Source: a virus. Taken from it: DNA of 64,000 nucleotides. Positions within the stretch are counted from its first letter, which is position 1. Every line of letters begins with the position of its first letter. The DNA lies in IMG/VR virus record IMGVR_UViG_3300020202_000074, positions 1,023 to 65,022 of that record; one strand, given 5' to 3'. The notes under the pieces were generated by a model, which did not search any database, had not been told where the DNA came from, and saw only the letters and a program-made list of their open reading frames with translations. This document shows, piece by piece, positions 915-30,969 of this stretch. The position numbers were made by a program, and so were the translations under genes.

Positions 915-1189
915 ACACCATCCTCAGCACCTGGTCCGAAGGTTGCACCATCGTCACAATCCTCGTCGGAGGCATAGTCACCGTCGCAGGCATCATCGCC
1001 GGAGTCGCATTCCACCACAACAAGCGTGAGCACGACCGTGAAGACCTGAAGGCCCACCACGAAATGGAGGTCAAGGACCGCAACGACTACAAGGCCCTGA
1101 TACGTAACGCCAACCAAATCGACAAGGCTGACAAGTCTCTTGGCGGCCTGGACTCCCTCGCCGAAGCCCACCGTCGGTGGATGCCATGA
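911..1189 (+). CDS. single-TM protein with charged C-terminus
   Basis: hydrophobic IVTILVGGIVTVAGIIAGVAF; translational coupling. Confidence 0.65.
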   Translation: MNTILSTWSEGCTIVTILVGGIVTVAGIIAGVAFHHNKREHDREDLKAHHEMEVKDRNDYKALIRNANQIDKADKSLGGLDSLAEAHRRWMP

Positions 1190-6899: not shown

Positions 6900-7544
6900 A
6901 TGTCGATCATTCGACAGCACCGCACGGTTGGCACGTCGCTGTTTTACAGCGACGAGGCGTATTACGACAACAACGGGTTCAGTACTCAAGAGGCCTATTA
7001 CAGCGGAGTGGAGGACGACTACGACTTCTACACCCACCAGCTCGAAGGTGAGCTCTCGTACGAATCCATCGAAGTGGATCCCTCTCCAGTGGGGAATAAC
7101 TACGAGTTGAAGGCCTCCTTCGAGTACCGCGAGCCCCAACGCCTGCATGCGTTCCGTGGACACGTGGCGGACCGCATCGACAAGGACGGCCACTTCTGCG
7201 GCGAGATATGGGGTCCTATCCCCACCACCATTGATGTGCTGAGGAGGCACCGTCGCCAGCGACCCCGCATGGATTACGAGGCGTATCTGACGGCCCGCGC
7301 CGACGCCCTGTTGATCGAAGCGAAGGCCCCTCTCTTCATCACGACGCCCGACAGTCCGCCGAACATTTACGCGACGGAGGCCAAGCCCTCCACCTACCAT
7401 CCGGAACCTTGGCGAGCCTTGAAGGAGCAGATCCGCCTTCGCCTGGGCATGATCGACGCAACCAAACGACCATCGCCCATCCCCGAAGAGGACCTCACCT
7501 TCCAGGCCGCCCAGGCCCTCCGACACTCCCCAAGGAGCCGCTAA
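6900..7544 (+). CDS. hypothetical protein
   Basis: SD AAGGAG, ATG 6900. Confidence 0.65.
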   Translation: MSIIRQHRTVGTSLFYSDEAYYDNNGFSTQEAYYSGVEDDYDFYTHQLEGELSYESIEVDPSPVGNNYELKASFEYREPQRLHAFRGHVADRIDKDGHFCGEIWGPIPTTIDVLRRHRRQRPRMDYEAYLTARADALLIEAKAPLFITTPDSPPNIYATEAKPSTYHPEPWRALKEQIRLRLGMIDATKRPSPIPEEDLTFQAAQALRHSPRSR

Positions 7545-7984: not shown

Positions 7985-8245
7985 ATGAAGGTTACGTTCA
8001 TCAGCAACAGTGGCGACGGTACCCCCCAGACCATCGAGGTTCCGGACGACACCACCCTCGACATCGTTCTTCGTCAGAAGGGCGTCAACGAGGGCCAGGT
8101 CGTCATCTCCCACAACCGCCAGCGCGTCCCCGCCGGCAGCGCCGCCCAGACCCGCCTCCAGGACGGTGACCGCGTCGCGGTGACCCCGACGAACATGAAG
8201 GGAGCCATTGGCTCCGAGGGCGCTGAGATCCGTCTCGCCGCCTAA
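7985..8245 (+). CDS. ubiquitin-like (ThiS/MoaD beta-grasp) protein with C-terminal extension
   Basis: MKVTFI..IEVPDDTTL..RLQDGDRVAVTPTNMKG; SD AAAGGAG; neighbours E2/JAB/E1. Confidence 0.85.
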   Translation: MKVTFISNSGDGTPQTIEVPDDTTLDIVLRQKGVNEGQVVISHNRQRVPAGSAAQTRLQDGDRVAVTPTNMKGAIGSEGAEIRLAA

Positions 8246-8262
8246 TAGTCTGCGGTTAGGCA

Positions 8263-8374
8263 GCCAACGTAGCTCAAGAAGGTAGTACCTGGCCCGGTCG
8301 CTCCGGTCAGCGAATCCCCTGGAAGAGCGTCGGACAATAATCCGGTGATGGAGGTTCGAGTCCTCCCGTTGGCT
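8263..8374 (+). ncRNA. tRNA-like element: 49-nt D loop, 6-nt anticodon loop
   Basis: GCCAACG/CGTTGGC acceptor, GCTC/GAGC D stem, GGAGG-TTCGAGT-CCTCC T arm, loop CAATAA. Confidence 0.8.
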
Positions 8375-8424
8375 TTGTACGTTACGTTCCTACTTCCACC
8401 CCCTCGCTCTAGAAGGAGCACCAT

Positions 8425-9732
8425 ATGGAGTACCCTGACAGCCTAAAGCTGGAGGTCCTGACTCCGGAGAAAGCCCTGGCCCTCGCGGGCCGCCTCGTCG
8501 CCAAGATCCTCCCCAAACCAGCCCCCAACACCCCAGACACCCCTCAGGGTCTCCCTCGCGTCGTGGAGCACAAGACCACCGCGAAGATGAAGCGGAACAT
8601 CAAGGCGATCGAGACCGCCCTCGCCAAGGGCGACCTCCAGAAGTTCAACGCGATGGTGATGGAGTTGCGGGCCCAGATGAACACCGTAGAGTGGGCGAAG
8701 CTCGTCACCAACTGGACGGCCAAGAAGACCATCGGGACCTCCCCAGTGCGGGATGTGGCCGCCAGCCTCGTCGCCGTCGCCCGCGCGTATCCGACGCACA
8801 TCCTCAGCGGCCCCATCTACTGGCGCAAGGACCGCAAACCCGACTCGGTCAACGGTCGAGGCGCCATCGCATTCCAGATGTGGAGCCTCCTGGTCGACAC
8901 CCCTCACATCTTCCTCTACGACATGGACGACCAGGAGTTCGATCTCGGCCCGATGCGCCTCCATTACAACCTGAAGTACCTGCTCGCCCATTTCCCACAC
9001 TGGGATCCAGGTTACGCTATCAACACGGTGCGGGTGGAGCCCCTGGATCCCTACTGGCCGACTCACAAAGCAGACGTCAACCTCGCCGTTGGCGAAATCA
9101 CCACCGACCAACCCAGCCACCTCGCCCGGACCCACCCCTTCGCCGCCACTCACAACCTGGAGTGCCACCCGCACATCCGGGGCGGTCGACCCTGCTTAGG
9201 GACTGCGCTGCCCGCTCTGGCCAGGGAGCTCCACAGCTTGATGTTCTGGGAAGCCACCGACATCCTCATCGGCTACCTTCAGTCCTACAACCCCGCCGAC
9301 GTCTTCCGCTCCCTTGAGATGTGGAACGTCCCCGCCTGCGCCAACTGCGGCTACCTCGGCAAGAAGCCCGACGACCGCACCAAGTGCGACATCAGCGGCG
9401 GCGAGACGTGCGCCAACTGCCGTTACCGCGAGAACTACGTCGACCTCGACGGAAAGGCCCACGTCGTGACGGTGAACGGCACCCGGTACGGCCAACACTC
9501 CCTCCGCGAATGGGCCGCGAAGACGTACGACGAGCCCATCAAAGCACGCAGGGCCGCAGAGGCCGCTGCGATGTCGGTCGGCCTCTCCCCCAACTCCCTT
9601 CCCACTGCGTCCCCCGTAACGGAGCCCTCCGATGGCCCGAAGAAGAAAACGCGGAAAAAAGCCCGCACCCCTACCCCGTCCGATTACGCCCCCTTCGAGT
9701 ACGTCGAACCGTCCAGGGACGAGCCGTTCTAA
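8425..9732 (+). CDS. prokaryotic E2-like protein with C-terminal Cys cluster
   Basis: HPHIRGGRPCLG (Cys257) then L.SYNP.D; CANC..C..CANC; operon context. Confidence 0.7.
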   Translation: MEYPDSLKLEVLTPEKALALAGRLVAKILPKPAPNTPDTPQGLPRVVEHKTTAKMKRNIKAIETALAKGDLQKFNAMVMELRAQMNTVEWAKLVTNWTAKKTIGTSPVRDVAASLVAVARAYPTHILSGPIYWRKDRKPDSVNGRGAIAFQMWSLLVDTPHIFLYDMDDQEFDLGPMRLHYNLKYLLAHFPHWDPGYAINTVRVEPLDPYWPTHKADVNLAVGEITTDQPSHLARTHPFAATHNLECHPHIRGGRPCLGTALPALARELHSLMFWEATDILIGYLQSYNPADVFRSLEMWNVPACANCGYLGKKPDDRTKCDISGGETCANCRYRENYVDLDGKAHVVTVNGTRYGQHSLREWAAKTYDEPIKARRAAEAAAMSVGLSPNSLPTASPVTEPSDGPKKKTRKKARTPTPSDYAPFEYVEPSRDEPF

Positions 9733-9763
9733 GGGATACTCCGCTAAAGGTAAAGGCAACAAG

Positions 9764-10789
9764 ATGACACACGGATACAGCTACAACAGCCATGGCAGCT
9801 CCGGCTACCAGGTCAAGTCCTTCAGTCCCCCACCCCCTCCACAGCTGAGTTTCTCCGTCTACGCGTGGATGAAACTCCAGTGGTTCTGCCACGCGGCCGA
9901 CACCGAGGTCGGAGCGTTCGGCATCACCGACCCGGAGAATCCCCTCCACGTCGTGGACATGATTTTCCCACCGCAGAAGTGCACCACGGTGTCGGTCGAT
10001 TACGACGACCAGGGACTCATCGACTTCGCCATGGACTGCGCGGAAGCCAACATCGCCCCCGCCAACAGCATGCGGGTATGGATCCACACCCACCCCGGCA
10101 ACAGCCCCACGCCCTCCTCCACCGATGAGGAGACGCTCGCCACTGTGTACAAGGACTCGTCCTGGGCGGTGATGTTCATCCTCGCACGTGGCGGCGCCAC
10201 CTACTGCCGCCTGCGGGCGAACCCCGCCGACAAGGTGTCCCTCTCGTCGGAGATCAAGGTCGTCCTGCCCACCATCTTCGACTACATGAAGTACACCGAG
10301 GTCCCTCTCTCTCACGTCGCCACCTGGGAGAAGGAGCTCAAGGACAACGTCTCCAAACCCGCCGCCCGCGTCTATTCATACACCAGCAGCACTCCTTCCA
10401 ACTACACGCCTGTCGGCATTGCGGGTCACCGAGTCTTGAAGAAGGGCTACGACGACCTGCCCGCGTACAAGGCATGGATGGCGGATCGAGACTTCACGGA
10501 TCCCTTCCCCAAGTATCTGTACATGCACTACCCCGAGCTTTATTGGGTGTACTTCGAGCCTCCCGACTGGTGCAAGAACGATTACACCACTGGCCGACCG
10601 GAGCCCGCCACCTCAGGCATCATCGTCGCGTCTGAGGGTCCCGCCGAGCGGGTCAAGGCCCGCAAGCTGCTGTCCGCCGCCGAGAAGGCCCAAGACCTCC
10701 TCGATGACGACACCCAAGACACCCTCTACGGAAGCTCCGCCGCTGCTGACGACAACGAAATGGCCCGCTTCATGGAGGGCCGCCTCTAG
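9764..10789 (+). CDS. JAB/MPN+ (JAMM) metallopeptidase
   Basis: TEVG..WIHTHPGNSPTPSSTD = E..HxH..S..D motif; ATG 9764 after AAAGG. Confidence 0.85.
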   Translation: MTHGYSYNSHGSSGYQVKSFSPPPPPQLSFSVYAWMKLQWFCHAADTEVGAFGITDPENPLHVVDMIFPPQKCTTVSVDYDDQGLIDFAMDCAEANIAPANSMRVWIHTHPGNSPTPSSTDEETLATVYKDSSWAVMFILARGGATYCRLRANPADKVSLSSEIKVVLPTIFDYMKYTEVPLSHVATWEKELKDNVSKPAARVYSYTSSTPSNYTPVGIAGHRVLKKGYDDLPAYKAWMADRDFTDPFPKYLYMHYPELYWVYFEPPDWCKNDYTTGRPEPATSGIIVASEGPAERVKARKLLSAAEKAQDLLDDDTQDTLYGSSAAADDNEMARFMEGRL

Positions 10790-10820
10790 CCACGACGGGC
10801 GTACGCTGTGGAAGGACACA

Positions 10821-10964
10821 GGGCGGAAAAGCTATCCGCAAGCGGGCAGATGCAAGAGGCTGTAAGAGCACCGGCTCTTGGTGCCGGAGCGCTCTGAGCT
10901 GTACGTAGCTGGCCGGAAGGCCCCGATCAGAAGTCCCGAGCCGGAATCAAGCCCGGCCCGCCCA
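10821..10964 (+). ncRNA. possible structured RNA with acceptor/T-arm-like closure
   Basis: GGGCGG/CCGCCC-A plus GCCGG/CCGGC stem; internal hairpins incl. GGCC-GGAA-GGCC. Confidence 0.3.
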
Positions 10965-11047
10965 CCCGCACACCCCCCGCCAACCTGCGGCCAATACTTG
11001 CTGCTCCCCTCCACGGAGGGGTGTGGCCAATGCGAGGCGGGGGATTC

Positions 11048-11151
11048 GCCGGAGTAGCTCAGTGAAGGAGCAACGATTGATCCCCGTTGTGCCTTCCGGT
11101 AGAGCGTCGGAAGAACTCCGAAGGTCGCAGGTTCGAGTCCTGCCTCCGGCA
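11048..11151 (+). ncRNA. tRNA-like element: 34-nt hairpin in D loop, 5-nt anticodon loop
   Basis: GCCGGAG/CTCCGGC-A, GCTC/GAGC, TCGGA-AGAAC-TCCGA, GCAGG-TTCGAGT-CCTGC. Confidence 0.85.
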
Positions 11152-11193
11152 TTCAGTACCAGACCCCCTATCTAAATCTAAAGGAACCCGATC

Positions 11194-12006
11194 ATGCCCC
11201 GACAGACTGAAGAAGAAACGAACCTCCGCCAGAAGCGATTCCGTGACCTCGGCGAGAAGATGAGTCAGGCCTCCTGCGTCGTCATTGGCTGCGGCGCCAT
11301 CGGCCGCCAGGTGGCCATGCAGCTCGCCGTCATGGGCGTCGCCACCCTCGACCTCTACGACCCTGGCGACATCGAGGAAGTGAACCTCGGCACCCAGGGT
11401 TGGAGCCCCCTCGACGAGGGCAAGCCCAAGGCCCAAGTCCTCGCGGAAGAGATCGAGGATGTGAACCCCGACGTCATCGTCGGCACCGTCATTGGCACCT
11501 TCAAGGTGAGCCCCACCGCGCAGAACGTAGCGGATACGTACGTATTCATGTGCGTGGACTCGATGGAAGCTCGCACCGAAATCTTCCAGGCCATCAAGAA
11601 GGTGGCGGTGGAGGGAGCACCAGCCCACCTTTTCATCGACGCGCGGATGACGATGGAAGCCGCTCGGATTTTGGTGGTGGACAACCTCGCGGCCGACGAG
11701 TATTATCAATCCACCCTATTTGCCGACCGCGACGCGCTGGCTGACGGATGCACGACGAAATCGACCTTCTACTGCGCCAGCCTCGCGGCGTCGCTGATGG
11801 TGACGCAGTTCGCCAAGCACCTTCGGGGGATCGAGACCGACCGCGACATGACCATCGACCTTCGATCTATGGAACTGTTCCCCACCACCATCGACACGGC
11901 GCCCACAGCGGTGTCGCACACGTGCTCGGACAGCAGCCCGCCGGCGCTGGAGACCGCTGCGGTCGATGCCGTCCTGCGTAGCGTGACCGTCTGCCCGATG
12001 CCCTAG
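11194..12006 (+). CDS. ThiF/E1-like activating enzyme
   Basis: VIGCGAIGRQVA..DPGDIEEVNLGTQ..CVDSMEAR..IDARM..GCTTKST. Confidence 0.9.
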   Translation: MPRQTEEETNLRQKRFRDLGEKMSQASCVVIGCGAIGRQVAMQLAVMGVATLDLYDPGDIEEVNLGTQGWSPLDEGKPKAQVLAEEIEDVNPDVIVGTVIGTFKVSPTAQNVADTYVFMCVDSMEARTEIFQAIKKVAVEGAPAHLFIDARMTMEAARILVVDNLAADEYYQSTLFADRDALADGCTTKSTFYCASLAASLMVTQFAKHLRGIETDRDMTIDLRSMELFPTTIDTAPTAVSHTCSDSSPPALETAAVDAVLRSVTVCPMP

Positions 12007-12033
12007 ACCTCGTCCGATTCTTGAGGAGCTGAT

Positions 12034-12999
12034 ATGCCGTTACGGGAAGACCTCATCGCGAACGTCAAAACGCTGAAGCGCAAAGTGGCCCACCTCGAAC
12101 GACTGTTCGACGCGCTGCTTGTCCGTATCACCGGTCTCGAAGATGAGGTCTTCCCGGTCTCCAGCTCCACCATATCAGCGCCGGAGGCTCCCGACTCCCT
12201 GGAATCCAGCGTCAGCACCCTCGACGCACCGAGCACCGCATCGATTCCTGACCTCCCGCCCAACGGGCTGCCATTCCTCGTAGCAAGCCCTCTCCCAAAC
12301 AGTGAGGTGCGAGACGTTGGGGTCTCAGGGATCATGTCCTTAGCCGGCCACGACATCACCGTCTCTCCTGGCACCGTAATCCAGGGTACCCCTCGTGGCC
12401 TCAACGTCGAGAACGACGAGGACTCCGATCGTGTATTCAGCTATTACTTCACGGCCATCGGCTGCACCGGTTACGGTGCCTATCTCGCCCACGCGAGGGA
12501 TCACTACCACCACCACTTGCAGCTACGCCAGATCGCTGGCGCCAACATGGCCCTGTTCCGGCTCGGTGGTGGTGACCGGGTCATCATCAACCAGTTCGAC
12601 TTCGACAACTGGGCCGCGTTGAACGACAGCATCCGGGTCTATGGATGCCGCAACTTCGCCGCCCTGAACGGCGTCATCAAGGGCGGCCACATCCGCGTCG
12701 GCGTCCAGCACGGCGACATGGGCGGAGCCACCTTCCCCGCGACGAATCAGTGGTACCGGAATATCCAGTTCCACTACCGGGGCTCCCCGATGCCGGCAGC
12801 CTTCAGCTCCCATGAGTTCGTCGAATCCCTCACGATCGAGAATGTCCACGTCATCGGCGGCCAACGCTTCCTCGACATGGACCAGGAATACCACCCCGCC
12901 GTGACGATCAAGGGTTGCACACACAACGGCGTCCCCGTCACCCGTGCGATGGTGGGCGACTCCAACAAGCAGGGCTCCAACCTTCAGGTGCTCCCATGA
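12034..12999 (+). CDS. hypothetical protein, possible beta-helix C-terminal domain
   Basis: repeating short strands (YRNIQF, SLTIENVHV, VTIKGC); SD GAGGAG. Confidence 0.55.
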   Translation: MPLREDLIANVKTLKRKVAHLERLFDALLVRITGLEDEVFPVSSSTISAPEAPDSLESSVSTLDAPSTASIPDLPPNGLPFLVASPLPNSEVRDVGVSGIMSLAGHDITVSPGTVIQGTPRGLNVENDEDSDRVFSYYFTAIGCTGYGAYLAHARDHYHHHLQLRQIAGANMALFRLGGGDRVIINQFDFDNWAALNDSIRVYGCRNFAALNGVIKGGHIRVGVQHGDMGGATFPATNQWYRNIQFHYRGSPMPAAFSSHEFVESLTIENVHVIGGQRFLDMDQEYHPAVTIKGCTHNGVPVTRAMVGDSNKQGSNLQVLP

Positions 13000-13145
13000 C
13001 CCGACGACAGCAGGCGATGATCGCAGTCGGAGCCCCTTTGGCAGCGCTGGGCCTTTGGCTGCCCAATGGGACTCCCGCCGTGATCCTGGTCGCTCTCGGA
13101 CTCTCTCTTGTCTTCTGGCCAATCCTTGAAGAGTACAACGAATGA
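12996..13145 (+). CDS. small membrane protein
   Basis: MTRRQQAMIAVGAPLAALGLW..; ATGA overlaps both sides. Confidence 0.55.
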   Translation: MTRRQQAMIAVGAPLAALGLWLPNGTPAVILVALGLSLVFWPILEEYNE

Positions 13146-13939
13146 ACCAAACAGTGACCAAGGTCATTACGCCCTACATCTCGCTCTACGGCCTCTCGTC
13201 ATCGACGGGCATCGACCCGCCGCCGCCGGAGATTGTCATGGCGATGAGGAAACACCGGATTCGGCGTGTGAAGAACTCGCAAGAGATACTTCACGCCTGG
13301 ACGGGACCGGTCATGTTGGATGATGAGGGTGCGGAGTTCCAGCGGATTCATTGCGGCGAGGCCACGCAGGACGACTGGCAGCACTTCCGCAAGAGGGTGG
13401 GCAACATACCGGGTCTGCCGCCGAACCTCGGCATCTACGGGCTGCCGCCGCACGCGAATCCTTATGCCGAGGGCTGGTGCGATGCCTTCATGCATCAGTT
13501 CACGCAGTGGTCAATGCCCGACTGTGCGCTGGGAGAAGATGTTGAGGCCGATATGTACTTCGCGGGTGTTCTATGCAAGCGACAAGTCGCAAAGCACGGC
13601 GCGTCCAAGGTTATGCCGGTGCTGAAACTATGGACGATTGGCGCGACAAACGCATTGAATGCGCTTAGCCAAGACACACTCAACTGCTTGGTAGATGGTC
13701 TCTACGCCGTTGGCGTGCGGCACCTTCACTTCTGGGAAATCCACGAGGAAGACTACATCCGCCTCTCGATGGACCCACCGGAAAGCCACCCCGAGGCCAA
13801 GTGGGCCAACGACTACTTCGGCGACACGTACCGTTTGGACCCGTCGCGCATCCTGCCCGACGCCATCAAGTTCACCGTGCAGCGGTGCGAGATGATTCGC
13901 ATCGCGTGCGACAAGGCGATGGGGAGGGGGAAGCGATGA
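13142..13939 (+). CDS. hypothetical protein
   Basis: coupled ORF, 265 aa. Confidence 0.65.
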   Translation: MNQTVTKVITPYISLYGLSSSTGIDPPPPEIVMAMRKHRIRRVKNSQEILHAWTGPVMLDDEGAEFQRIHCGEATQDDWQHFRKRVGNIPGLPPNLGIYGLPPHANPYAEGWCDAFMHQFTQWSMPDCALGEDVEADMYFAGVLCKRQVAKHGASKVMPVLKLWTIGATNALNALSQDTLNCLVDGLYAVGVRHLHFWEIHEEDYIRLSMDPPESHPEAKWANDYFGDTYRLDPSRILPDAIKFTVQRCEMIRIACDKAMGRGKR

Positions 13940-14142
13940 GCGACAAGCATGTTGAAGCCGTCATCGCCAAGCATCGGGAACGAGCCGCCAAGGGACTGAG
14001 CAAGTACGGCGTCACAACTGAACGCACGGACCTTACGCCGCTGGAGTGGATGCAACACGCCCAGGAAGAGGCGCTGGACTTCGCGGTGTACCTCGAACGG
14101 ATGATTGCGAACGAACTTGCGCGGATTGGAGGCGACCGATGA
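13936..14142 (+). CDS. conserved small phage protein (all-alpha, MazG-like pattern)
   Basis: KGLSKYGVTTERTDLTPLEWMQHAQEEALDFAVYLE pattern. Confidence 0.6.
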   Translation: MSDKHVEAVIAKHRERAAKGLSKYGVTTERTDLTPLEWMQHAQEEALDFAVYLERMIANELARIGGDR

Positions 14143-14330
14143 CAAAATGTATTACGTTTGACGACTTGGAGGATCGAGACCGTGAGATCGCCGACCTCGC
14201 GCGGCGGCTGAGGACGGTAGAACTTGAATGTTCGGTTTGCCACCGCAAAATCGACTTATCAAAGGACCTCATCAAGTGCGCGCCCTGCGGAATGGGTACA
14301 TCAGTAGCTGCGAGGGAGCAGAACCCATGA
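14139..14330 (+). CDS. Zn-ribbon protein
   Basis: CSVC..CAPC; ATGA coupling. Confidence 0.55.
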   Translation: MTKCITFDDLEDRDREIADLARRLRTVELECSVCHRKIDLSKDLIKCAPCGMGTSVAAREQNP

Positions 14331-14509
14331 GCAAGATCAAGAAGTGGACATCAGCCGAACACCGCATCCTAATGTCTCTCATAGCGAGTGGCGTATCGGC
14401 TAGGGAGGCCAGCCGGCAGATGGAGCGATCGTGGGACTCCGTTCGACAGTTTGCATCTCGGCATGGCATCTCGTTGAAGCATCGCAAGGGCCGAAAGACC
14501 ACCACATAA
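14327..14509 (+). CDS. small helix-turn-helix DNA-binding protein
   Basis: WTSAEHRIL..GVSAREASRQMERSWDSVR. Confidence 0.7.
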   Translation: MSKIKKWTSAEHRILMSLIASGVSAREASRQMERSWDSVRQFASRHGISLKHRKGRKTTT

Positions 14510-14524
14510 GGGAGCTGTTCCACG

Positions 14525-15346
14525 ATGAACCTGCTTACCAGCACCGCATTGCCCGAGGGGTCGTTCCACTGGCCCCGCGCATACCAGGGGCCCTCGGTTC
14601 GGACTCTCTTCGACGAGCCCGCCGGGTGGGAGGGCACGTTGATCACTCCCTTCCACGCCTACGACCAGATCAAAGCGGCCCGCACCGTTTATCCCAAAGC
14701 GCAGCTCGGCGTCCTCGGCTGGCCACAGTTCAAGCCGGTTCACCAGGCCGACGACCTCCTCGCAGAGACGGCGGAGGCCTCCCGCATCAAGAGCGTCGTG
14801 AGCCTCGTTGACATGGTGTGCCCGGACTGCCGGTTGCCCGCCGCCGGCCACTTCGACACGTGGATGGGGCCCCAGATCGACACCGCCCGACGTCTTGCTA
14901 AGGGGAAGCCCGTCATCCCTATCGTCAGCCACCGGCGACGTTGCCCTGGCCCTCAGCACTACCAAGAGATCGGCCTCACAACGATCACCTTGCTGGTGCA
15001 GTTCCTGGAATCCATGCGAATCGACACCGTCATCCTCGTTACTGATGAAGTACCATGGATGATGGAACAATCGTTCATGGACCCCTCAGCAGGTGGCACC
15101 ATCGACGAACAGGCAGCCTTCCTCATTCGGCAGGCACAGAAGGCGTACCCTTGCCTCGTACACGTTGACGAGATCGAGTCGTACCACCTCAACGAGGTGA
15201 TGATGGCCGCCACCGCATTCCAGGGGGCAATCAACCTGTTGCCTCCCAGACGACAACGAAGAAATAGAGCGGTGACTGCTTCGGTTGATCCGCCTCCTCC
15301 TGCGTCGGCGGATCTCCCTCCGCACCCCACCACCGAAGCAATCTAA
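14525..15346 (+). CDS. hypothetical protein
   Basis: SD AGGGAG; 273 aa. Confidence 0.65.
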   Translation: MNLLTSTALPEGSFHWPRAYQGPSVRTLFDEPAGWEGTLITPFHAYDQIKAARTVYPKAQLGVLGWPQFKPVHQADDLLAETAEASRIKSVVSLVDMVCPDCRLPAAGHFDTWMGPQIDTARRLAKGKPVIPIVSHRRRCPGPQHYQEIGLTTITLLVQFLESMRIDTVILVTDEVPWMMEQSFMDPSAGGTIDEQAAFLIRQAQKAYPCLVHVDEIESYHLNEVMMAATAFQGAINLLPPRRQRRNRAVTASVDPPPPASADLPPHPTTEAI

Positions 15347-15357
15347 AGGAGCATGAG

Positions 15358-15681
15358 ATGGCCAAGAGACTGAAATCTAAGAACCCGATGCGTCCCGTAC
15401 GACGCACTCGGCACTACGCACGAGCGGCTGCCAGGAAGGATCGACACGTAGCCAAGAGCTCGCACGGCCGGTTCCTCACCCGCGAGGACCTCCTCAAGGG
15501 CAAGGCCACCCGCCCCGCCACCGTGAAGGTGTACAACGGTCCTCGCCCAGTACGGGCTCCGCGTATCACGTGGGAAGGTCGAAGTCCTCGAATGCTCAAG
15601 CCCCTTCGGCCCGAAGACCGACCGACAAGGTCAGAGCGCGTGACGAACAAGGACGTCAGCTTCGACCCGAGCAACGAATAA
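15358..15681 (+). CDS. Arg/Lys-rich basic protein
   Basis: SD AAAGGAG. Confidence 0.6.
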   Translation: MAKRLKSKNPMRPVRRTRHYARAAARKDRHVAKSSHGRFLTREDLLKGKATRPATVKVYNGPRPVRAPRITWEGRSPRMLKPLRPEDRPTRSERVTNKDVSFDPSNE

Positions 15682-15688
15682 CACAGTG

Positions 15689-15755
15689 GCCGACCACCGG
15701 AAGTCATGCAGGGGCCCATAACCCCAGCGGCGTCGTTCGATTCGACGGGTCGGCA
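15689..15755 (+). ncRNA. tRNA-Met(CAT)-like element lacking a proper D arm, C at position 33
   Basis: GCCGACC/GGTCGGC-A, GGGG-CCCATAA-CCCC, CGTCG-TTCGATT-CGACG; 67 nt. Confidence 0.75.
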
Positions 15756-15766
15756 TTCCCCCATCT

Positions 15767-16324
15767 ATGACAGCTGGTCATTCTCGGCTGGCAGTCTCCA
15801 AGGAACCAATGGTTCCTAGAATAAACGACCGACTTGGAGACATGCACACCATGAACCTTTCCTGGGACGTATCCGGCATCCCAAACCACCGCACCAAGTG
15901 CTTCTACAGGGCGAAGCCTGGTGAGCTAGACAACGTGCAGACCGCTGGCGAATCCATTCCGTTGGAGGATGGCCACGGTCGACACCTGATGAAGCTTCGA
16001 CCGAAGGTCGCCGCCCTCATATGGGCTAGCGCCCAGGTCGGCCTCTCGCACGTCAGTTTCGAGAACATCGAGGAGTGGCTCTATCGGCTCGACGCCTTGT
16101 TCGACGCGGGCAACGCCTTCATGTTTATGAATACCCCCGAGGGACGGGTGCCCGTCCGGCTCAATCGAAGGGACCTAGAGCTGTATGTCGGCCTACGAAC
16201 CTCCGCCAAACCCATCCCCCATCAGCTCTTCGACTCCATCATCCGAGGCCTCCGGATGGCACGACAGGCTGACGCCCTTCTCGACCTCACCAGCCACAGC
16301 GACGACGACGGCCTGGACGTTTAG
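15767..16324 (+). CDS. hypothetical protein
   Basis: ORF with codon bias; start uncertain. Confidence 0.6.
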   Translation: MTAGHSRLAVSKEPMVPRINDRLGDMHTMNLSWDVSGIPNHRTKCFYRAKPGELDNVQTAGESIPLEDGHGRHLMKLRPKVAALIWASAQVGLSHVSFENIEEWLYRLDALFDAGNAFMFMNTPEGRVPVRLNRRDLELYVGLRTSAKPIPHQLFDSIIRGLRMARQADALLDLTSHSDDDGLDV

Positions 16325-16472
16325 CACCTTCGACCCCGGCCACGAAGATGGCGACCGAGCCAACTACCACGTCGGCTGTGCAGAGTTCGCCCAACGATTC
16401 GCCCGAAAGATAGCAGGCGCGTGGTACTCGATGTACTACGTCGGTCCCGAAGCCCCTCGTAAGGAGGCCACG

Positions 16473-25615: not shown

Positions 25616-26103
25616 ATGGACCACGGACACTAACCCTTTTTCCAAGGAAGCACACCCTTGAACGCGACCTCTTTCGCTGGATGCTGGTTATTGGCGGCGT
25701 CATTGTCGCTGCTGTGGTCCTGTCGGGGTGCGTCTCCCACAGCCTCACCCGAACCAAGGACTCCACCAGCCCAGACGGCACCGTCGAACGAAGCTTCTTC
25801 GGACTCAAGTACCGAGACACCAGACCTCTCGGCGACACCGTCGGACCCCTCGCCGGAGCCGCAGGTACCTTCCTCACCGAGTCCGGGGGCTTCGGGTTCC
25901 CAGGACTCTCCCTCCTCGGGACGGCCTTGGGCAGCGTTGCCGGATGGATGGGACGGGGGAAAGTCCATACAGCGGCTGACCGTGCATGGGACGAACGGGA
26001 CCGTCAGATCAGCCATACTCCTCCCATTGTGGTTATGGCGAACCCTGGAGTTCCTGGGAATAACAGTGCTGTCGTGCCTCCTGGTGGCGTTCCTTCTACC
26101 TAA
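25612..26103 (+). CDS. putative lipoprotein
   Basis: hydrophobic signal ending VLSG-C lipobox. Confidence 0.6.
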   Translation: MNGPRTLTLFPRKHTLERDLFRWMLVIGGVIVAAVVLSGCVSHSLTRTKDSTSPDGTVERSFFGLKYRDTRPLGDTVGPLAGAAGTFLTESGGFGFPGLSLLGTALGSVAGWMGRGKVHTAADRAWDERDRQISHTPPIVVMANPGVPGNNSAVVPPGGVPST

Positions 26104-26178
26104 AGCAGTGGCGTGGTGGTACCGTGTACCAGTAGCTAAGTGGAACAAGTGATCGCGTAGTTGGGGGGATTCGGGGGG

Positions 26179-27048
26179 ATGGCGGGAAATCTTGATGGGG
26201 AAGCGCACGTTCCTAACAGCGTCGGCACCGAAGCCGGCAGCTGCTTCGTGTCCGCCAACACCGTCGCTGCTCCGACGTCCGGAGAGATCCGCACCGTAGG
26301 CGCGTGGATCTACACCACCGCCGACGCGGCGACCTTCGAGGGCTACAACTTTCAGATCATCGGCTGCCGAACGAGGACAACCACTGCGTCGTTCTTCAAC
26401 ACCTTCACGTACGCGTTGCAGGTGACGGCGGCTGACGGGCTCTTCAAGGTCCGCACGGTCATCGGCAACAATCCCATACAACACTACAACCAGACGAGCG
26501 GCGGAGCCGACGCCCCCTACCTTCCCTTGGGTCGGGGCATCTACGTCGCTGCCCAGTTCAACACCAACGGCACCAACACCCCCAACGACACACCCGTGTA
26601 CTCGGGTCCCGTCCTGACTACGCTCGCCCTCGACGGCGCAGACACGCCACATGCCCTCTCCACAGCCGCTCGACAGGTCTCCATCGGCGGGCCAGCTGGC
26701 ACCGGCTCGGGCGGCTCTGACCTTGCGTTCTTCCCTGGCCGTATTCAGTGGGCCTACCACCACCCCGGAGCCCTGACCCACGCCCAGCACCTTGCTATGG
26801 CGGCTGGTGTATCCCCACTCCAGTTCCTTACACCGACGTCCAGCGACTGCTGGATGATGGATTCCAACTCCGGCCTCTTCGTGAACGCCACCGGAGGCCC
26901 CTCTGGTGTCCTCTCCGCAAGCGGCAACGCCGCGTACACCGCGAACTTCGTCCAGCAGCGTGTCCTCGGCGTCCCTCGATCCGGACAGACGCTCCAAGGC
27001 CGCACCGGGCGCGTCTTCTACCCCGGTGCCTCCCGCGTTCAAGCCTAG
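26179..27048 (+). CDS. LamG/ConA-like domain protein
   Basis: TVGAWIY..FFPGRIQWAYHHPGALT resembles LamG3 pattern. Confidence 0.55.
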   Translation: MAGNLDGEAHVPNSVGTEAGSCFVSANTVAAPTSGEIRTVGAWIYTTADAATFEGYNFQIIGCRTRTTTASFFNTFTYALQVTAADGLFKVRTVIGNNPIQHYNQTSGGADAPYLPLGRGIYVAAQFNTNGTNTPNDTPVYSGPVLTTLALDGADTPHALSTAARQVSIGGPAGTGSGGSDLAFFPGRIQWAYHHPGALTHAQHLAMAAGVSPLQFLTPTSSDCWMMDSNSGLFVNATGGPSGVLSASGNAAYTANFVQQRVLGVPRSGQTLQGRTGRVFYPGASRVQA

Positions 27049-27072
27049 AATCTCCACCCTAGGAGCCCCCAC

Positions 27073-28332
27073 ATGGAACTGCCCGTGCTTGAGCCCCCCA
27101 TCCCTCACGGGAGAGGTAAGGATGCTCGTCTCTTCTTGGAGTTCTTCGGCATCCTTCCCCGCGTGCCCCATCTCCGCGCGTCGGACTGGGACCTCGCCGG
27201 CGACCCCTTCATGTACTACCTCACGCGCCGGTTGTCTCTGACGACTGCCCTTAGCACCTCGAAGGCCCTGGTCGGCGGCACCTGGTTCCACAAGGTCATG
27301 GAGAACTCCTTGATGGAGGGATGCTCTGGTGGTGGGATCTCCACTCTCTGGGGCATCCGCGTCGCCGAACTACGCGAGACGTGCGCCCGTCTCCACATCA
27401 TGGGAGAGGCTGTTGAGAAGGTGATTGCCGAGGAGAAGCGACGCTACGAGATGGCCCGTGTGTGGTGGCAAGCGTGCATGGACGTCCACATCTCTGATTC
27501 CATCGGCACGCTCTACAACTTCCTGACCCAGCCCCACTTGAGGATCCTCGCGACGGAGCTCCACCTACGTGGCACGTTCAAGGGTCGTCACCCCACCCAG
27601 CTCAAGAAGATCGACTACACGGGTGCCGCCCAGATCGACCTGCTGCTCTACCACACCGGCATCAACGTCCTCTACCCGGTGGACTTCAAGACCTGCGACA
27701 TGGTGCCCAAGGTCCGCCTCGCCATCTGCCCGCAGGAGATGCAGACCCACCACTACCCCGAAATCGTGAACCAGAACCTCCCGAAGCTCATCCGAGAGTA
27801 CGGTCTCGACAAGAAGACCACGGTCGCCGGGATGATCCACGTCGCGGTGCAGAAGCCCTCCATTGAGTTCGGCCGCAACGACCGCCTCTTCACCTCGACG
27901 GAGCGGACGATCACCCGTGGCCCTCGCAAGGGCCAGGTCGTCATCGACAAGGAGTATTACGGCGAACCCGACTTCAAACTCTACCTTGAACGGTGCCGCC
28001 AGTGGTACCAGGGCGAGGGCGACTACTCCCACGAAGCCCCCAAGCGTCAGGGCAGCAATGCCCCGGTGAACATCTCCTTCATGGATGCCAAGTGGATATC
28101 CGCACCCGAGCAGCGGGCCGCCTACCGCGAGAGGCTGGAGACCCTGATGCACCTCAGCAGGCGACCGCCGACGCCCGAGCGATTCCCCCAGCGCGGGGAC
28201 CACCTTATCCAGTACGGAAAAGAGAGCCCGTGGCTCCCCTTCTACGTGTGCCCGGTCAGTGATTGGCCTACGATCATGGCTCAGAAGGGCATCGTGATGA
28301 ACCCCCGTGACCACGACGAGCCCTACGCATAA
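27073..28332 (+). CDS. PD-(D/E)XK exonuclease (RecB/Cas4-like)
   Basis: QIDLLL..VDFKT..QTHHY. Confidence 0.75.
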   Translation: MELPVLEPPIPHGRGKDARLFLEFFGILPRVPHLRASDWDLAGDPFMYYLTRRLSLTTALSTSKALVGGTWFHKVMENSLMEGCSGGGISTLWGIRVAELRETCARLHIMGEAVEKVIAEEKRRYEMARVWWQACMDVHISDSIGTLYNFLTQPHLRILATELHLRGTFKGRHPTQLKKIDYTGAAQIDLLLYHTGINVLYPVDFKTCDMVPKVRLAICPQEMQTHHYPEIVNQNLPKLIREYGLDKKTTVAGMIHVAVQKPSIEFGRNDRLFTSTERTITRGPRKGQVVIDKEYYGEPDFKLYLERCRQWYQGEGDYSHEAPKRQGSNAPVNISFMDAKWISAPEQRAAYRERLETLMHLSRRPPTPERFPQRGDHLIQYGKESPWLPFYVCPVSDWPTIMAQKGIVMNPRDHDEPYA

Positions 28333-28409
28333 AGGAAAGTGGTCCGTCGCGTCTCACGCTCTCTCTGCGTTCGCGTGAGCCCCTCCGGCCCCCACCACAG
28401 GAACCACAC

Positions 28410-28964
28410 ATGGACCCCGACACCTCTCTCGGACAACCACCCATCGTCGCTACCCCCCAAGCACCCCCGCCCACAAAGAAGAAGACCTCCTCGAAGTCGA
28501 AATCAAAGACGAAGTCCCCCACCAAGGAAGTCGGCTTCTACGTTCCCCGAACTCTGTACGAGTCCTTTCTCAACGAGGTGGTGCTGCCCATGATCCAACA
28601 GATCATGCTGGAGGCTCGGCCGCCGATCGGCTCGATGAAGCACCTGCACGAGGCCTTCTGCGCGGAGGCGAAGTGCCAGATCTCCTTCACCATGTTTCGT
28701 GAATGGCTCACCACGTTGAAGGTGGAGACCGAGACCACCATCCACCTGAAAGTGCCTGGCATCGTGGACGGCCCCGGCACCCCGCATCTCGCGGCATCAA
28801 TGCCGCTGCCGAGATCGTTGCAGCCCCCGACCATGGGGGCGATGATGGGCGCCGACAACTCCCAAGAGTTCCACGACTTCGAGAACCAGCCTCCGATGGC
28901 CGCTCCCGCCGGACCCCTTGGGGACCCCAAGTTCGGCGGCATCAACACCTCCTTTGAAGGATGA
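28410..28964 (+). CDS. hypothetical protein
   Basis: SD AGGA; ATGA coupling downstream. Confidence 0.6.
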   Translation: MDPDTSLGQPPIVATPQAPPPTKKKTSSKSKSKTKSPTKEVGFYVPRTLYESFLNEVVLPMIQQIMLEARPPIGSMKHLHEAFCAEAKCQISFTMFREWLTTLKVETETTIHLKVPGIVDGPGTPHLAASMPLPRSLQPPTMGAMMGADNSQEFHDFENQPPMAAPAGPLGDPKFGGINTSFEG

Positions 28965-29896
28965 CCATGCCTCCTGCACAGACGCTCGCCGCTGGCACCT
29001 CCGTGACCCAGAAGTACCCAAGCCTGGGGTTCACGGGAATCCAGATGCGATACCCCCTCAACAAGTTGTTCGGGATGATCGTGGGCCGCTTCTCCTCTGG
29101 GAAGTCCACGCTCTTCCAGAGTAACCCCGAAGCCTACATCATCAACAGTGACCTCACCTCGACGGTGGCCGAGCCCCTCCGGGCCACGATCTGGCCGGGC
29201 GTCTCCCCCTCTGGGGAGCCGATCGACGCCGACAGCAAGCCGATGCAACTCACCCATCAGCGGGTCCTCGACAAGCTCAAGCTGCTGGAGGCCCTGTCCA
29301 AGGAGAACAAGCCACGACCCTCGTGCGTCGTCTACGACACGATCACGACAGAAGCGGCCCTGACCAAGGCGTGGATGGTCGAGAACGCCAACTCCCGTCG
29401 ACAGGACAACAAGCCACCCATCACCCGATGGCGGGACCTCCACGGCGAGACCGCGTGGGACGAGCTCTACGAGAACATCCTCTTCACCTGCGCGTGGCTC
29501 CGGGGCCTCGGGTACGGAGTATGGCTCCTCATCCACCTGACCGACGACGTCATCCGGCTCAACGATGCGGAGACCATCGTGAAGCCCAAGCTTTCATTGC
29601 CCGACGGCTTCATGAAGCGAGCCGGCCCCCTTCTCGAAGTGATTGGCCTCGCCACCAAGGAGGTGGAGCAGGAAGTCATCACAAAGAAGGAGGACGTCCT
29701 CAACGACAAGACCGGCGAGAAGCTATACACCAAGGACGTCACCATCACGGTGCCGAAGACCCGGTACTACGTGGACTTTGACAATCCGAAACTCGCCGGT
29801 ATCCTCAAGCCTCGCGCTGGAGCTCGCGGCCGCATCCCTCTGTCCAAGGAGGATCCCTGGGGCGACTTCGAGCGAGCCTACAACTCCTCCAACTAG
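28961..29896 (+). CDS. AAA_24/Sak4-like phage ATPase
   Basis: Walker A GRFSSGKST, Walker B VVYDTIT; between nuclease and SSB-like gene. Confidence 0.75.
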   Translation: MTMPPAQTLAAGTSVTQKYPSLGFTGIQMRYPLNKLFGMIVGRFSSGKSTLFQSNPEAYIINSDLTSTVAEPLRATIWPGVSPSGEPIDADSKPMQLTHQRVLDKLKLLEALSKENKPRPSCVVYDTITTEAALTKAWMVENANSRRQDNKPPITRWRDLHGETAWDELYENILFTCAWLRGLGYGVWLLIHLTDDVIRLNDAETIVKPKLSLPDGFMKRAGPLLEVIGLATKEVEQEVITKKEDVLNDKTGEKLYTKDVTITVPKTRYYVDFDNPKLAGILKPRAGARGRIPLSKEDPWGDFERAYNSSN

Positions 29897-29905
29897 GACC
29901 CAACT

Positions 29906-30154
29906 ATGGCTCTGAAATGGCACCGTACGATGATGGTCCGCGTCGAATATCGACCCCTTCTAGCTGATAGCGACGCAATGATGAAACCGGGTCATACCTA
30001 CAACGTGGTGGCCCACGACGTCGAGGATGCAATCAACAAAGTCAAGAGAGACCTCGCTCGTAGTACCCCGAGTACCAAGTTTGAGCCTTACATCCAAAAG
30101 GTCGAGTATCTTGGCTCCGTCCTCATCGAAGAGACCGAGCCCTCCCCCGAGTAA
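29906..30154 (+). CDS. hypothetical protein
   Basis: SD AGGA. Confidence 0.55.
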   Translation: MALKWHRTMMVRVEYRPLLADSDAMMKPGHTYNVVAHDVEDAINKVKRDLARSTPSTKFEPYIQKVEYLGSVLIEETEPSPE

Positions 30155-30210
30155 CTACGTAGTCCGGACAGGGTGTCCGGTGATCACCTTTCTGAAAGGA
30201 ACCAGCTCTT

Positions 30211-30744
30211 ATGCCAATGACCGACAACGAAACCATTTCACTCTTCCAGGCCCTCAGCGCCGGCATGGAGAACGTCAAGCCCGACCAGGGCGGCGGCGGC
30301 AACTGGCCCGCGAACGGCACCTATGAGTGCATCGTCACCGAGCTCTCCCTCAACGCTGGCGACGACGTCACCTTCGGAGCCAAGGAATCCGGTATGCCGG
30401 GGTTCATCATGCAGTTCAAATACCTTCGACTCAAGGACCCCAACGCCGCAGGCGGCGCGACTCCGGTCAATGGCGAATACTACCGGTTCCCCAAGCCCTC
30501 GGTCGACCTCTCGAAGCTCACCGCTGGCCAGCAGCAGAACCTCGACATCCTGAAGCAGAAGCTCGCGGGATTCATCGTCGCCATCCTTGGACGCAACCCG
30601 TCCAACAACCTCGGCGCCGACATCCTCGCTCTTCAGAAGAAGCTAGCGACCGGCAAGGTTGTCTGCGAGATCCGTTTCAACGAGAAGGAGTCCGGTCAGT
30701 ACACCAACCGGGACAGCTACTGCGTGTCCTGCTTGAGCTCGTGA
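30211..30744 (+). CDS. DUF669-like / ssDNA-binding protein
   Basis: P.NGTYECIV.EL pattern; position after Sak4-like ATPase. Confidence 0.55.
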   Translation: MPMTDNETISLFQALSAGMENVKPDQGGGGNWPANGTYECIVTELSLNAGDDVTFGAKESGMPGFIMQFKYLRLKDPNAAGGATPVNGEYYRFPKPSVDLSKLTAGQQQNLDILKQKLAGFIVAILGRNPSNNLGADILALQKKLATGKVVCEIRFNEKESGQYTNRDSYCVSCLSS

Positions 30745-30758
30745 ACCATGGGCGGCAA

Positions 30759-30834
30759 GGTGGTTATGGCACAATGGCGAGTGCGCCGGAGAGATAGAGA
30801 TCCGGAGGTCCGGGTTCGAGTCCCGGTAGCCACC
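30759..30834 (+). ncRNA. tRNA-His-like body with a 10-nt purine anticodon loop
   Basis: G-1:C73, GTGGTTA/TAGCCAC, GCAC/GTGC, CCGGA-GAGATAGAGA-TCCGG, CCGGG-TTCGAGT-CCCGG. Confidence 0.85.
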
Positions 30835-30844
30835 CCGCCCACCT

Positions 30845-30969
30845 GGGTGAGGACTATGGATAATCAGACGACGGTTGGCAAGGGGCCTAGGCTACCCAAA
30901 CCGTAAAAGTTCCCATAGTCACCTGTAAGGATCCGTCTCCGACCTGCGGTTAGAATCCCGGCTCGCCCA
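30845..30969 (+). ncRNA. tRNA-Tyr-like element with greatly extended D arm and unpaired anticodon stem
   Basis: GGGTGAG/CTCGCCC-A, GACTATGG/CCATAGTC helix, CT-GTA-A, variable arm GTC-TCC-GAC, TTAGAAT loop. Confidence 0.65.

Follow-up and report, generated by a model that had tools for sequence, protein, structure and literature searches.

The 64,000-nucleotide (nt) stretch analyzed here, which we call the window, spans positions 1,023 to 65,022 of the viral record IMGVR_UViG_3300020202_000074 in IMG/VR (65,474 bp, rated complete by CheckV), and it carries four transfer RNA (tRNA)-like elements, A to D, with a doubtful fifth, E, that have the body of a tRNA and lack the means to decode. Based on their anatomy, their occurrence well beyond chance and the recurrence of their architecture elsewhere, we propose that A-D, and possibly E, are probably processed, non-decoding tRNA mimics with a role in trans. 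Elements A and B represent a recurrent phage-borne design with a hairpin inserted into the D loop, D is a tRNA-His body that keeps the G-1:C73 pair, and C is a form devoid of the D arm. Phage tRNA genes are usually explained as a supply of codons or as replacements for tRNAs cut by host defences; this is a complete 65-kb phage without any decoder, yet with several tRNA bodies that are unable to decode.

The elements emerge from a scan for the top half of a tRNA, defined as a TT[CA]RANN loop on a T stem paired at 5/5 positions, an acceptor stem paired at 7/7, a 3' acceptor strand that directly adjoins the T stem, and a distance of 20-140 nt from the 5' acceptor strand to the T arm. Applied to the window, it returns exactly A, B, C and D, all on the + strand and none on the - strand, where 200 Markov-shuffled windows give an expectation of 0.33 sites for both strands together; these four are real and lie well beyond chance. 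ARAGORN reports a single gene in the window, namely D, as a tRNA-??? with the 4-base anticodon 'atag'. The Rfam tRNA model RF00005 (gathering score 29 bits) recovers D at 52.7 bits with a 10-nt loop, B at 51 bits with a D-loop insertion of 37 nt and a 5-nt anticodon loop, and A at 22.3 bits, below gathering and with an erroneous partial reading of its interior. Neither C nor E is reported by Rfam, and ARAGORN likewise omits C. The claim of the initial annotation that there is no normal tRNA holds for ARAGORN and Rfam on the whole 65,474-bp record, in which Rfam returns the same three matches as in the window, and CCA is indeed encoded by none of A-E. Relative to shuffles, the folds of A-D reach z = -2.0 to -3.4, with B at -3.4, and the minimum-energy folds of A, B and C give cloverleaf-like shapes, that of A being a cloverleaf with an inserted arm. 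Furthermore, A-D are letter-identical among the JGI, Logan and ENA assemblies of different samples; hence their odd loops are not assembly errors, an outcome that the initial annotation had named among those that would refute its reading. Variants do segregate between the assemblies, namely a 157-bp indel in L001 (window 1001-1158) and, in L003, a 9-bp indel (1840-1848) with two single-nucleotide polymorphisms (9020, 9036); none touches the tRNA-like elements.

Examination of the individual elements (Table 1) bears out the loop lesions and the expanded or lost D arms that had been described. In A, an irregular hairpin of ~41 nt precedes G18G19 in the D loop, and the anticodon stem closes a 6-nt loop, CAATAA. 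In B, the insert (~33 nt) is a 12-bp hairpin lying between AGT(G) and GGTA, whose removal leaves a textbook D loop, and the anticodon loop has 5 nt (AGAAC). In C, a 12-15-nt linker replaces the D arm, and the anticodon-like stem is GGGG/CCCC with the 7-nt loop CCCATAA, in which CAT is present and position 33 is C. Element D has an acceptor of the bacterial tRNA-His type (GTGG...CCAC), a normal D arm and a 10-nt anticodon loop, GAGATAGAGA, without GTG. The G-1:C73 pair is the main identity element for HisRS, and as it is kept, D might still be charged by this enzyme.

Table 1. Window coordinates of the tRNA-like elements, with their component arms, and of neighboring genes
Feature	Position	Strand	Acceptor or terminal stem	D arm	Anticodon stem and loop	T arm	Description
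Element A	8263-8374	+	8263-8269 / 8367-8373; discriminator T at 8374	stem 8272-8275 / 8325-8328; insert about 8280-8320	stem 8330-8334 / 8341-8345; loop 8335-8340	8350-8366	tRNA-like RNA between Ubl and E2-like genes
Element B	11048-11151	+	11048-11054 / 11144-11150; discriminator A at 11151	stem 11057-11060 / 11102-11105; insert 11064-11096	stem 11107-11111 / 11117-11121	11127-11143	tRNA-like RNA between JAB and ThiF/E1 genes
Element C	15689-15755	+	15689-15695 / 15748-15754; discriminator A at 15755		stem 15711-15714 / 15722-15725	15731-15747	tRNA-like RNA without D arm, between two small open reading frames (ORFs)
Element D	30759-30834	+	30760-30766 / 30827-30833; G-1 at 30759 pairs with C73 at 30834	30769-30784	stem 30786-30790 / 30801-30805; loop 30791-30800	30810-30826	tRNA-His-type body
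Element E	30845-30969	+	30845-30851 / 30962-30968				Doubtful tRNA relic
Ubl / E2-like / JAB / ThiF-E1 cassette	7985-12006						Gene cassette
Ubl gene	7985-8245						
E2-like gene	8425-9732						
JAB gene	3' end 10789						
ThiF/E1 gene	11194-12006						
Family A DNA polymerase	21328-23907						

In A, B and D each of the four stems (acceptor, D, anticodon and T) is perfect, as are the acceptor and T stems of C. Across A-D, ~80 stem pairs are intact, the one non-standard pair being an A-A in the outer, optional part of the anticodon stem of C. A, B and D retain U8, A14, G18G19, A21 and the T54-A58 consensus of the T loop; with these core tertiary nucleotides present, the contacts of the tRNA elbow are preserved in all three. 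Apart from the whole D arm lost in C, departures from tRNA are confined to loops. The description of the bottom half as a damaged decoding half was therefore too coarse, because A, B and D have lost no pair from their D and anticodon stems and it is loop lengths that have changed. By the same token, the argument that random decay would not have spared the same two arms each time was overstated, as the bottom-half stems were spared too, although what it was meant to convey, that the elements look maintained, stands. Indeed, the intact stems with lesions in the loops are the main internal argument against regarding the elements as decaying pseudogenes, that is, neutral relics of once-working tRNAs, which should have been struck in their stems at least as often as in their loops; we consider that origin distinctly unlikely.

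Element E is a different matter, and the count of five tRNA-shaped elements in the initial annotation stands only for the first four: A-D have the canonical 7-bp acceptor, 5-bp T stem and TTCRA-type loop, whereas in E, which has a 7-bp terminal stem and a long internal hairpin, the T-arm-like part GGTTAGAATCC pairs at only 3/5 positions of the T stem. Its fold is no better than shuffles (z = -0.64), and the covariance model R1 introduced below does not match it. When the T stem is relaxed to 3/5, E passes the scan together with another site at 45245, presumably a chance match, 0.6 sites per strand being expected by chance. Given this expectation and the poor fold, the weak case for E relies mainly on its position, 10 nt downstream of D. 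Two collinear 10-mers, GATCCGTCTC and CTGCGGTTAG, are common to the T-arm-like part of E (30930-30953) and to 8227-8259, a segment just upstream of A that overlaps the end of the Ubl gene; they may be the fossil of an E-like element, or a chance resemblance.

We then examined phages with related polymerases. Megablast against phages and single-protein scans with ThiF and the polymerase recovered no close relative usable for covariation, other copies being merely the identical assemblies, and the best non-self polymerase match is 44% identical. However, two relatives, the 64-kb contig L007 and L008, keep the Ubl-E2-JAB-E1, UDG, polymerase and nuclease order (cassettes at L007:2615-5770 and L008:230-3534). 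Right after the polymerase, L007 encodes a CAU tRNA and a tRNA-His(GTG), and L008 a tRNA-Pro(TGG) and a tRNA-His(GTG). Directly after the latter tRNA-His, L008, whose polymerase is ~45% identical, has an element missed by the tRNA finders (L008:10083-10178, hereafter L008x) with an acceptor paired at 6/7 positions, a GCTT/AAGC D stem, a GGAGC-N6-GCTCC hairpin inserted before GTGG, a perfect T arm, and a long closed helix with a 4-nt loop in place of the anticodon arm. Similarly, L102, obtained from a metagenome scan with the polymerase alignment, has a 95-nt element (L102:887-981, L102x) following tRNA-His and tRNA-Gln genes just upstream of the polymerase gene; in this element the hairpin GGGCC-TAA-GGCCC precedes GTGG, and a 6-nt loop closes a 7-bp stem. 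In an alignment of A, B, L008x and L102x, 98.4% of cells pair and 8/16 pairs change on both sides, a level approached by none of 500 shuffles, nor by slid controls. The covariation check proposed at the outset thus yielded both-side changes among these four, though no close ortholog. The covariance model R1, built from them, scores A at 83 bits and finds no members beyond L008x and L102x in ~145 polymerase-relative loci (1.85 Mb). Top-half matches in L039, L046 and L048 were rejected as chance matches in coding sequence. Odd tRNA-like genes of other kinds occur in more distant relatives (L063:18944-19024, L069:18846-18936, L007:12858-12928); these types comprise an 81-nt 'tRNA-???(ccgt)' adjoining tRNA-Gln, a CAU tRNA with a bulged acceptor stem, and a 91-nt element with a long hairpin enclosed by perfect acceptor and T arms.

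Such elements can be delimited as a class by four features: the acceptor and T arms are intact, the D stem is of the GCTY/RAGC type, an inserted hairpin separates A14-N17 from G18G19, and the loop on the anticodon stem has a length other than 7 nt. To survey it, we ran on IMG/VR a pattern with a gap too long for a normal tRNA (GTAGCTYA, 15-45 nt, GGNNRAGC, 20-40 nt, GGTTCRANYCC), which matched at least 118 stretches; acceptor and T-stem pairing was then required, and misread class II tRNAs and duplicated 5' fragments were removed. At least 29 distinct clean D-loop-insert elements remained. The figures from IMG/VR, like those from the cellular genomes considered below, are lower bounds, to be read as proportions and not as counts. 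Among the matches listed, 24/29 clean elements lack a canonical anticodon arm and, with A, B, L008x and L102x, display all the features of the class, while 5/29 have a canonical 5-bp/7-nt anticodon arm, with anticodons such as TCT or TTC; C, D and E have no D-loop insert of this type. Several of the anticodon stems are capped by tetraloops (GGCA, GTGA, TCCG, CTTG, AAGA) or by loops of 3, 5, 8 or 10 nt, and stem sequences vary from one element to another. In the subfamily comprising L157, L173 and L206 the inserted hairpin shows compensatory changes with a conserved loop, and in another subfamily A-to-G changes retain pairs as G-U, which fits selection at the RNA level on this strand. CCA is encoded by 8/33 elements among the matches listed, and many class members lie within ordinary tRNA clusters of 5 to 16 tRNAs. 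ARAGORN misses class members or labels them Thr, Pro, Leu or Phe, and Rfam returns for them either RF00005 with an insertion or no match, and no other family. A search of IMG/VR with the exact A/B-type pattern gave a single match, discarded as chance in coding DNA. One 177-nt match to R1 (L190:1085-1261), beside two other tRNA-type genes of an IMG/VR contig, may represent a far larger insertion in a tRNA frame.

The same long-D-loop pattern was run on 185,579 cellular genomes. Of the 49 passing matches listed, 39 are either misread inner D arms or tRNA 5' fragments duplicated next to an intact tRNA, and the 10 clean elements are mostly archaeal D-loop-intron tRNAs with normal anticodon loops, from DPANN and Thermoproteota; the phage-type design is confined, among those listed, to three elements in bacterial metagenome-assembled genomes (MAGs). 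In L280, L289, L300, L316, L336, L372 and others, a truncated copy of a tRNA 5' end stands just upstream of the intact tRNA, and these copies look like integration scars at tRNA genes. Our literature searches found no description of the D-loop-hairpin design, which is thus recurrent in phages and apparently undescribed; a survey of structured-RNA candidates in IMG/VR treats tRNA-like candidates only in general terms (PMC10690425).

These comparisons bear further on neutral decay. Relatives carry normal tRNA-His, tRNA-Pro and CAU tRNA genes from which a His-like D and a CAT-containing C could descend, the elements are specific to a lineage, E looks truly degraded, and the two 10-mers of E found upstream of A suggest old rearranged fragments. 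However, relics would not account for the same unusual design in two relatives and in two dozen or more unrelated phages, nor for its tetraloop caps and the compensatory changes in its stems. Hence, the view of the elements as tRNA-derived, non-decoding and maintained in appearance, already put forward in the initial annotation, is upheld by the intact stems, by the elbow nucleotides kept in A, B and D, and by the recurrence of the design. Decoding of an uncommon sort, by reading of frameshifts or quadruplets or by tRNAs restored through splicing of the D-loop insert, is an explanation to which we give hardly any credence. The 4-base anticodon called for D by ARAGORN, the few D-loop-insert tRNAs in IMG/VR with normal 7-nt loops (TCT and TTC, for example) and the D-loop introns of archaea speak for it. 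Nevertheless, loops of 5 or 6 nt cannot present an anticodon and removal of the insert is no remedy; the insert of B is a plain 12-bp hairpin without a bulge-helix-bulge, the phage has no RtcB-type ligase, and C has neither a D arm nor U33.

All the elements are intergenic and placed between co-oriented ORFs, D and E together between ORFs of 177 and 168 aa. We detected neither a sigma-70-like promoter nor an intrinsic terminator flanking them, which fits co-transcription with their neighbors, and this is probably how they are expressed. A stem-loop ends just 5' of A (8240-8262, 6 bp) and another just 5' of B (10971-11047, with GC-rich arms), and 258 nt of non-coding sequence separate the JAB gene from B, a stretch that folds no better than shuffles (z = -0.49). 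Sharing of a C-rich motif downstream of the elements was not significant. RNase P, RNase Z, the CCA-adding enzyme, TrmA/TruB and EF-Tu read the acceptor, T arm and elbow of tRNAs, and decoding requires a 7-nt anticodon loop with U33. Given elements that cannot decode and that keep the signals for processing, the most economical reading is that they are excised as stable tRNA-shaped RNAs. From the sequence we infer that they would be transcribed within early + strand polycistronic RNAs, cut at the 5' end by host RNase P, and finished at the 3' end by RNase Z and the CCA-adding enzyme. This would release stable tRNA-like RNAs of 67-112 nt and, as a side effect, cut the messenger RNA (mRNA) at four points, with the stem-loops just 5' of A and B possibly protecting the new mRNA 3' ends. 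The released RNAs may then act in trans by occupying a factor that reads the acceptor, T arm and elbow of tRNA, and D, as noted, might in addition be charged.

One might ask whether the cuts themselves are the purpose. By this account the elements would only mark RNase P/RNase Z sites in early mRNA, the excised RNA having no role, and would uncouple the stability and translation of flanking genes (Ubl / E2-JAB / E1 and others) in the manner of t-elements. It is consistent with the location of all four between co-oriented ORFs with no nearby promoter or terminator, with the potential of the stem-loops ending 5' of A and B to protect the upstream mRNA 3' end, and with the fact that the signal requires only the acceptor/T half. 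We nonetheless hold it to be unlikely, as it leaves unexplained the D stem, G18G19, the anticodon stems, the G-1:C73 pair of D and the added hairpin; the Ubl cassette of relatives works without the elements; and class members elsewhere are often found inside clusters of 5-16 tRNAs with no mRNA to cut, so that mRNA punctuation is not the general role of the class. A role in trans is favored by the retention of the D stem, the elbow nucleotides, closed anticodon helices and the HisRS identity elements of D, by the addition of a structured arm, and by the presence of class members within plain tRNA clusters. The added arm raises the further prospect that the tRNA body is a natural scaffold, serving only to process and display a D-loop hairpin cargo such as an aptamer or an antisense RNA. 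The insert does occupy the solvent-exposed variable pocket of the D loop with G18G19 in place, and in one IMG/VR subfamily the inserted stem covaries while its loop motif is conserved. Yet A, B, L008x and L102x have nothing in common in the sequence or size of their inserts, C and D have no insert at all, and the A and B inserts are no more complementary to phage transcripts than expected by chance; we therefore deem this prospect very improbable. Likewise, the antisense matches of the odd loops and inserts, among them one of 10 nt between the A insert and the B leader, do not exceed chance, and the notion of a multi-copy palindromic insert resembling a miniature inverted-repeat transposable element was rejected, the A and B inserts being unique in the genome.

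Comparison with known systems helps to place these RNAs. Canonical phage tRNAs (RF00005), such as the His, Pro and CAU genes of L007 and L008, share with them ancestry, stems, T loop and D-loop GG, are likewise without an encoded CCA, and are matched by B and D above the gathering score of the model; unlike them, none of A-D has a 7-nt loop with U33 or an amino-acid assignment, A and B have the extra D-loop hairpin, and C misses the D arm. In function, the nearest analogues would be mascRNA/menRNA and the plant mitochondrial t-elements, which are tRNA-shaped, do not decode, and are excised by RNase P/RNase Z from longer transcripts. The acceptor/T half read by the processing enzymes is kept here too, and the intergenic placement between co-oriented genes is compatible with punctuation of the t-element type. 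However, those RNAs are eukaryotic or organellar, and the normal D arm that A, B and D retain is missing from mascRNA; only D matches the mascRNA-menRNA model RF01684, at 21.9 bits (E = 6.4), short of its gathering score of 42.5. Among phage RNAs, RNAC and RNAD of T4 have tRNA-like 3' domains and are processed by RNase P. They are small stable RNAs of the T4 tRNA gene region whose roles are, decades on, still unknown (PMC3014915, PMC9697503). Like A-D, they are phage small RNAs that accompany or replace tRNA genes and are not known to decode, although they lie in a tRNA cluster whereas A-D are dispersed among protein genes; they have no Rfam model, and we found no resemblance to them in sequence or architecture that could be put to the test. 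Bacterial Y RNAs such as YrlA possess a tRNA-like domain that mimics the elbow and T arm without decoding (PMC4201824). In YrlA, however, the ends form a Ro-binding helix in a permuted topology and an Rsr/Ro60 gene is found alongside, while the ends here form a normal acceptor stem and the TROVE gene (PF05731) is absent from the genome. Archaeal D-loop-intron tRNAs also have extra D-loop sequence, but with 7-nt anticodon loops and bulge-helix-bulge splicing, unlike the plain hairpin insert seen here; in B, the 5-nt anticodon loop remains after removal of the insert. Two other identities were ruled out: tmRNA, which neither ARAGORN nor the Rfam results contain, and an attP-type tRNA fragment, as the phage has no PF00589 integrase and each element extends over its whole length, including the two strands of the acceptor.

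Several observations weigh against a maintained role in trans. In L007 and L008 the JAB and E1 genes abut, and A and B are absent from the cassettes; because these junctions have no RNA element, A and B are lineage-specific insertions, dispensable for the Ubl cassette of these syntenic relatives, and their absence argues against an essential role. Covariation among tRNA-like paralogs is expected of any tRNAs and is not proof of selection after the loss of decoding, and with the nearest polymerase at 44% no ortholog is near enough to show selection on the A-D copies themselves. Searches of the phage for genes of Pth, the CCA-adding enzyme, RtcB and Ro60 (PF05731) found none, and no gene family recurs beside class members, so that nothing points to a partner. 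Element B can also be read in another way, in which GCTC-N7-GAGC forms an inner D arm and the variable region is long. Finally, the phage sequence was matched in four runs, all of soil-metagenome DNA, with no RNA run among those listed.

As to the target, tRNA 3' ends are attacked by toxins such as the CapRel/toxSAS pyrophosphokinases and the MenT/AbiEii nucleotidyltransferases. We tentatively suggest, as a speculation of low probability, that A and B are trans mimics binding a protein that reads the acceptor, T arm and elbow, either such a host toxin or the E1 of the cassette, the latter on the model of the SUMO E1, which mascRNA is reported to bind (bioRxiv 10.64898/2026.01.19.700226). If so, phages would possess, in the D-loop-hairpin class, a widespread family of regulatory or counter-defence RNAs that has so far escaped description. 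Many unrelated uncultured phages carry the A/B design, for which Rfam has no family and which is seldom met in the cellular genomes sampled. More generally, if the RNAs are processed and stable, they would constitute a viral family of tRNA mimics, raising the question of which tRNA-binding enzyme or toxin is occupied, and their processing would also raise the question of whether phages shape operon mRNAs through RNase P/RNase Z sites. In practical terms, tRNA finders miss or mislabel such elements.

The window has a GC content of ~62%. Its first ~33 kb hold early and replication genes on the + strand, and the remainder holds structural genes on the - strand; further recognizable genes include a UDG, a PD-(D/E)XK nuclease and a Sak4-like ATPase. 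The cassette is conserved in the window, L007 and L008. Homologs of its JAB protein are mainly from Planctomycetota and soil MAGs, and its Ubl protein ends in ...NMKGAIGSEGAEIRLAA, without a terminal GG. A 506-codon ORF at 16185-17705 is absent from the JGI annotation and overlaps a called gene at 15842-16324; third-position GC suggests that it is truly coding in frame until ~16900. A 13-mer, WTCCCCACCACCA, has 16 exact copies and 27 at no more than 2 mismatches, against 4.2 expected (window 539-62105), on both strands and both within and between genes, for example at 7218, 11878, 18213, 22567 and 30971, the last copy lying directly 3' of element E.

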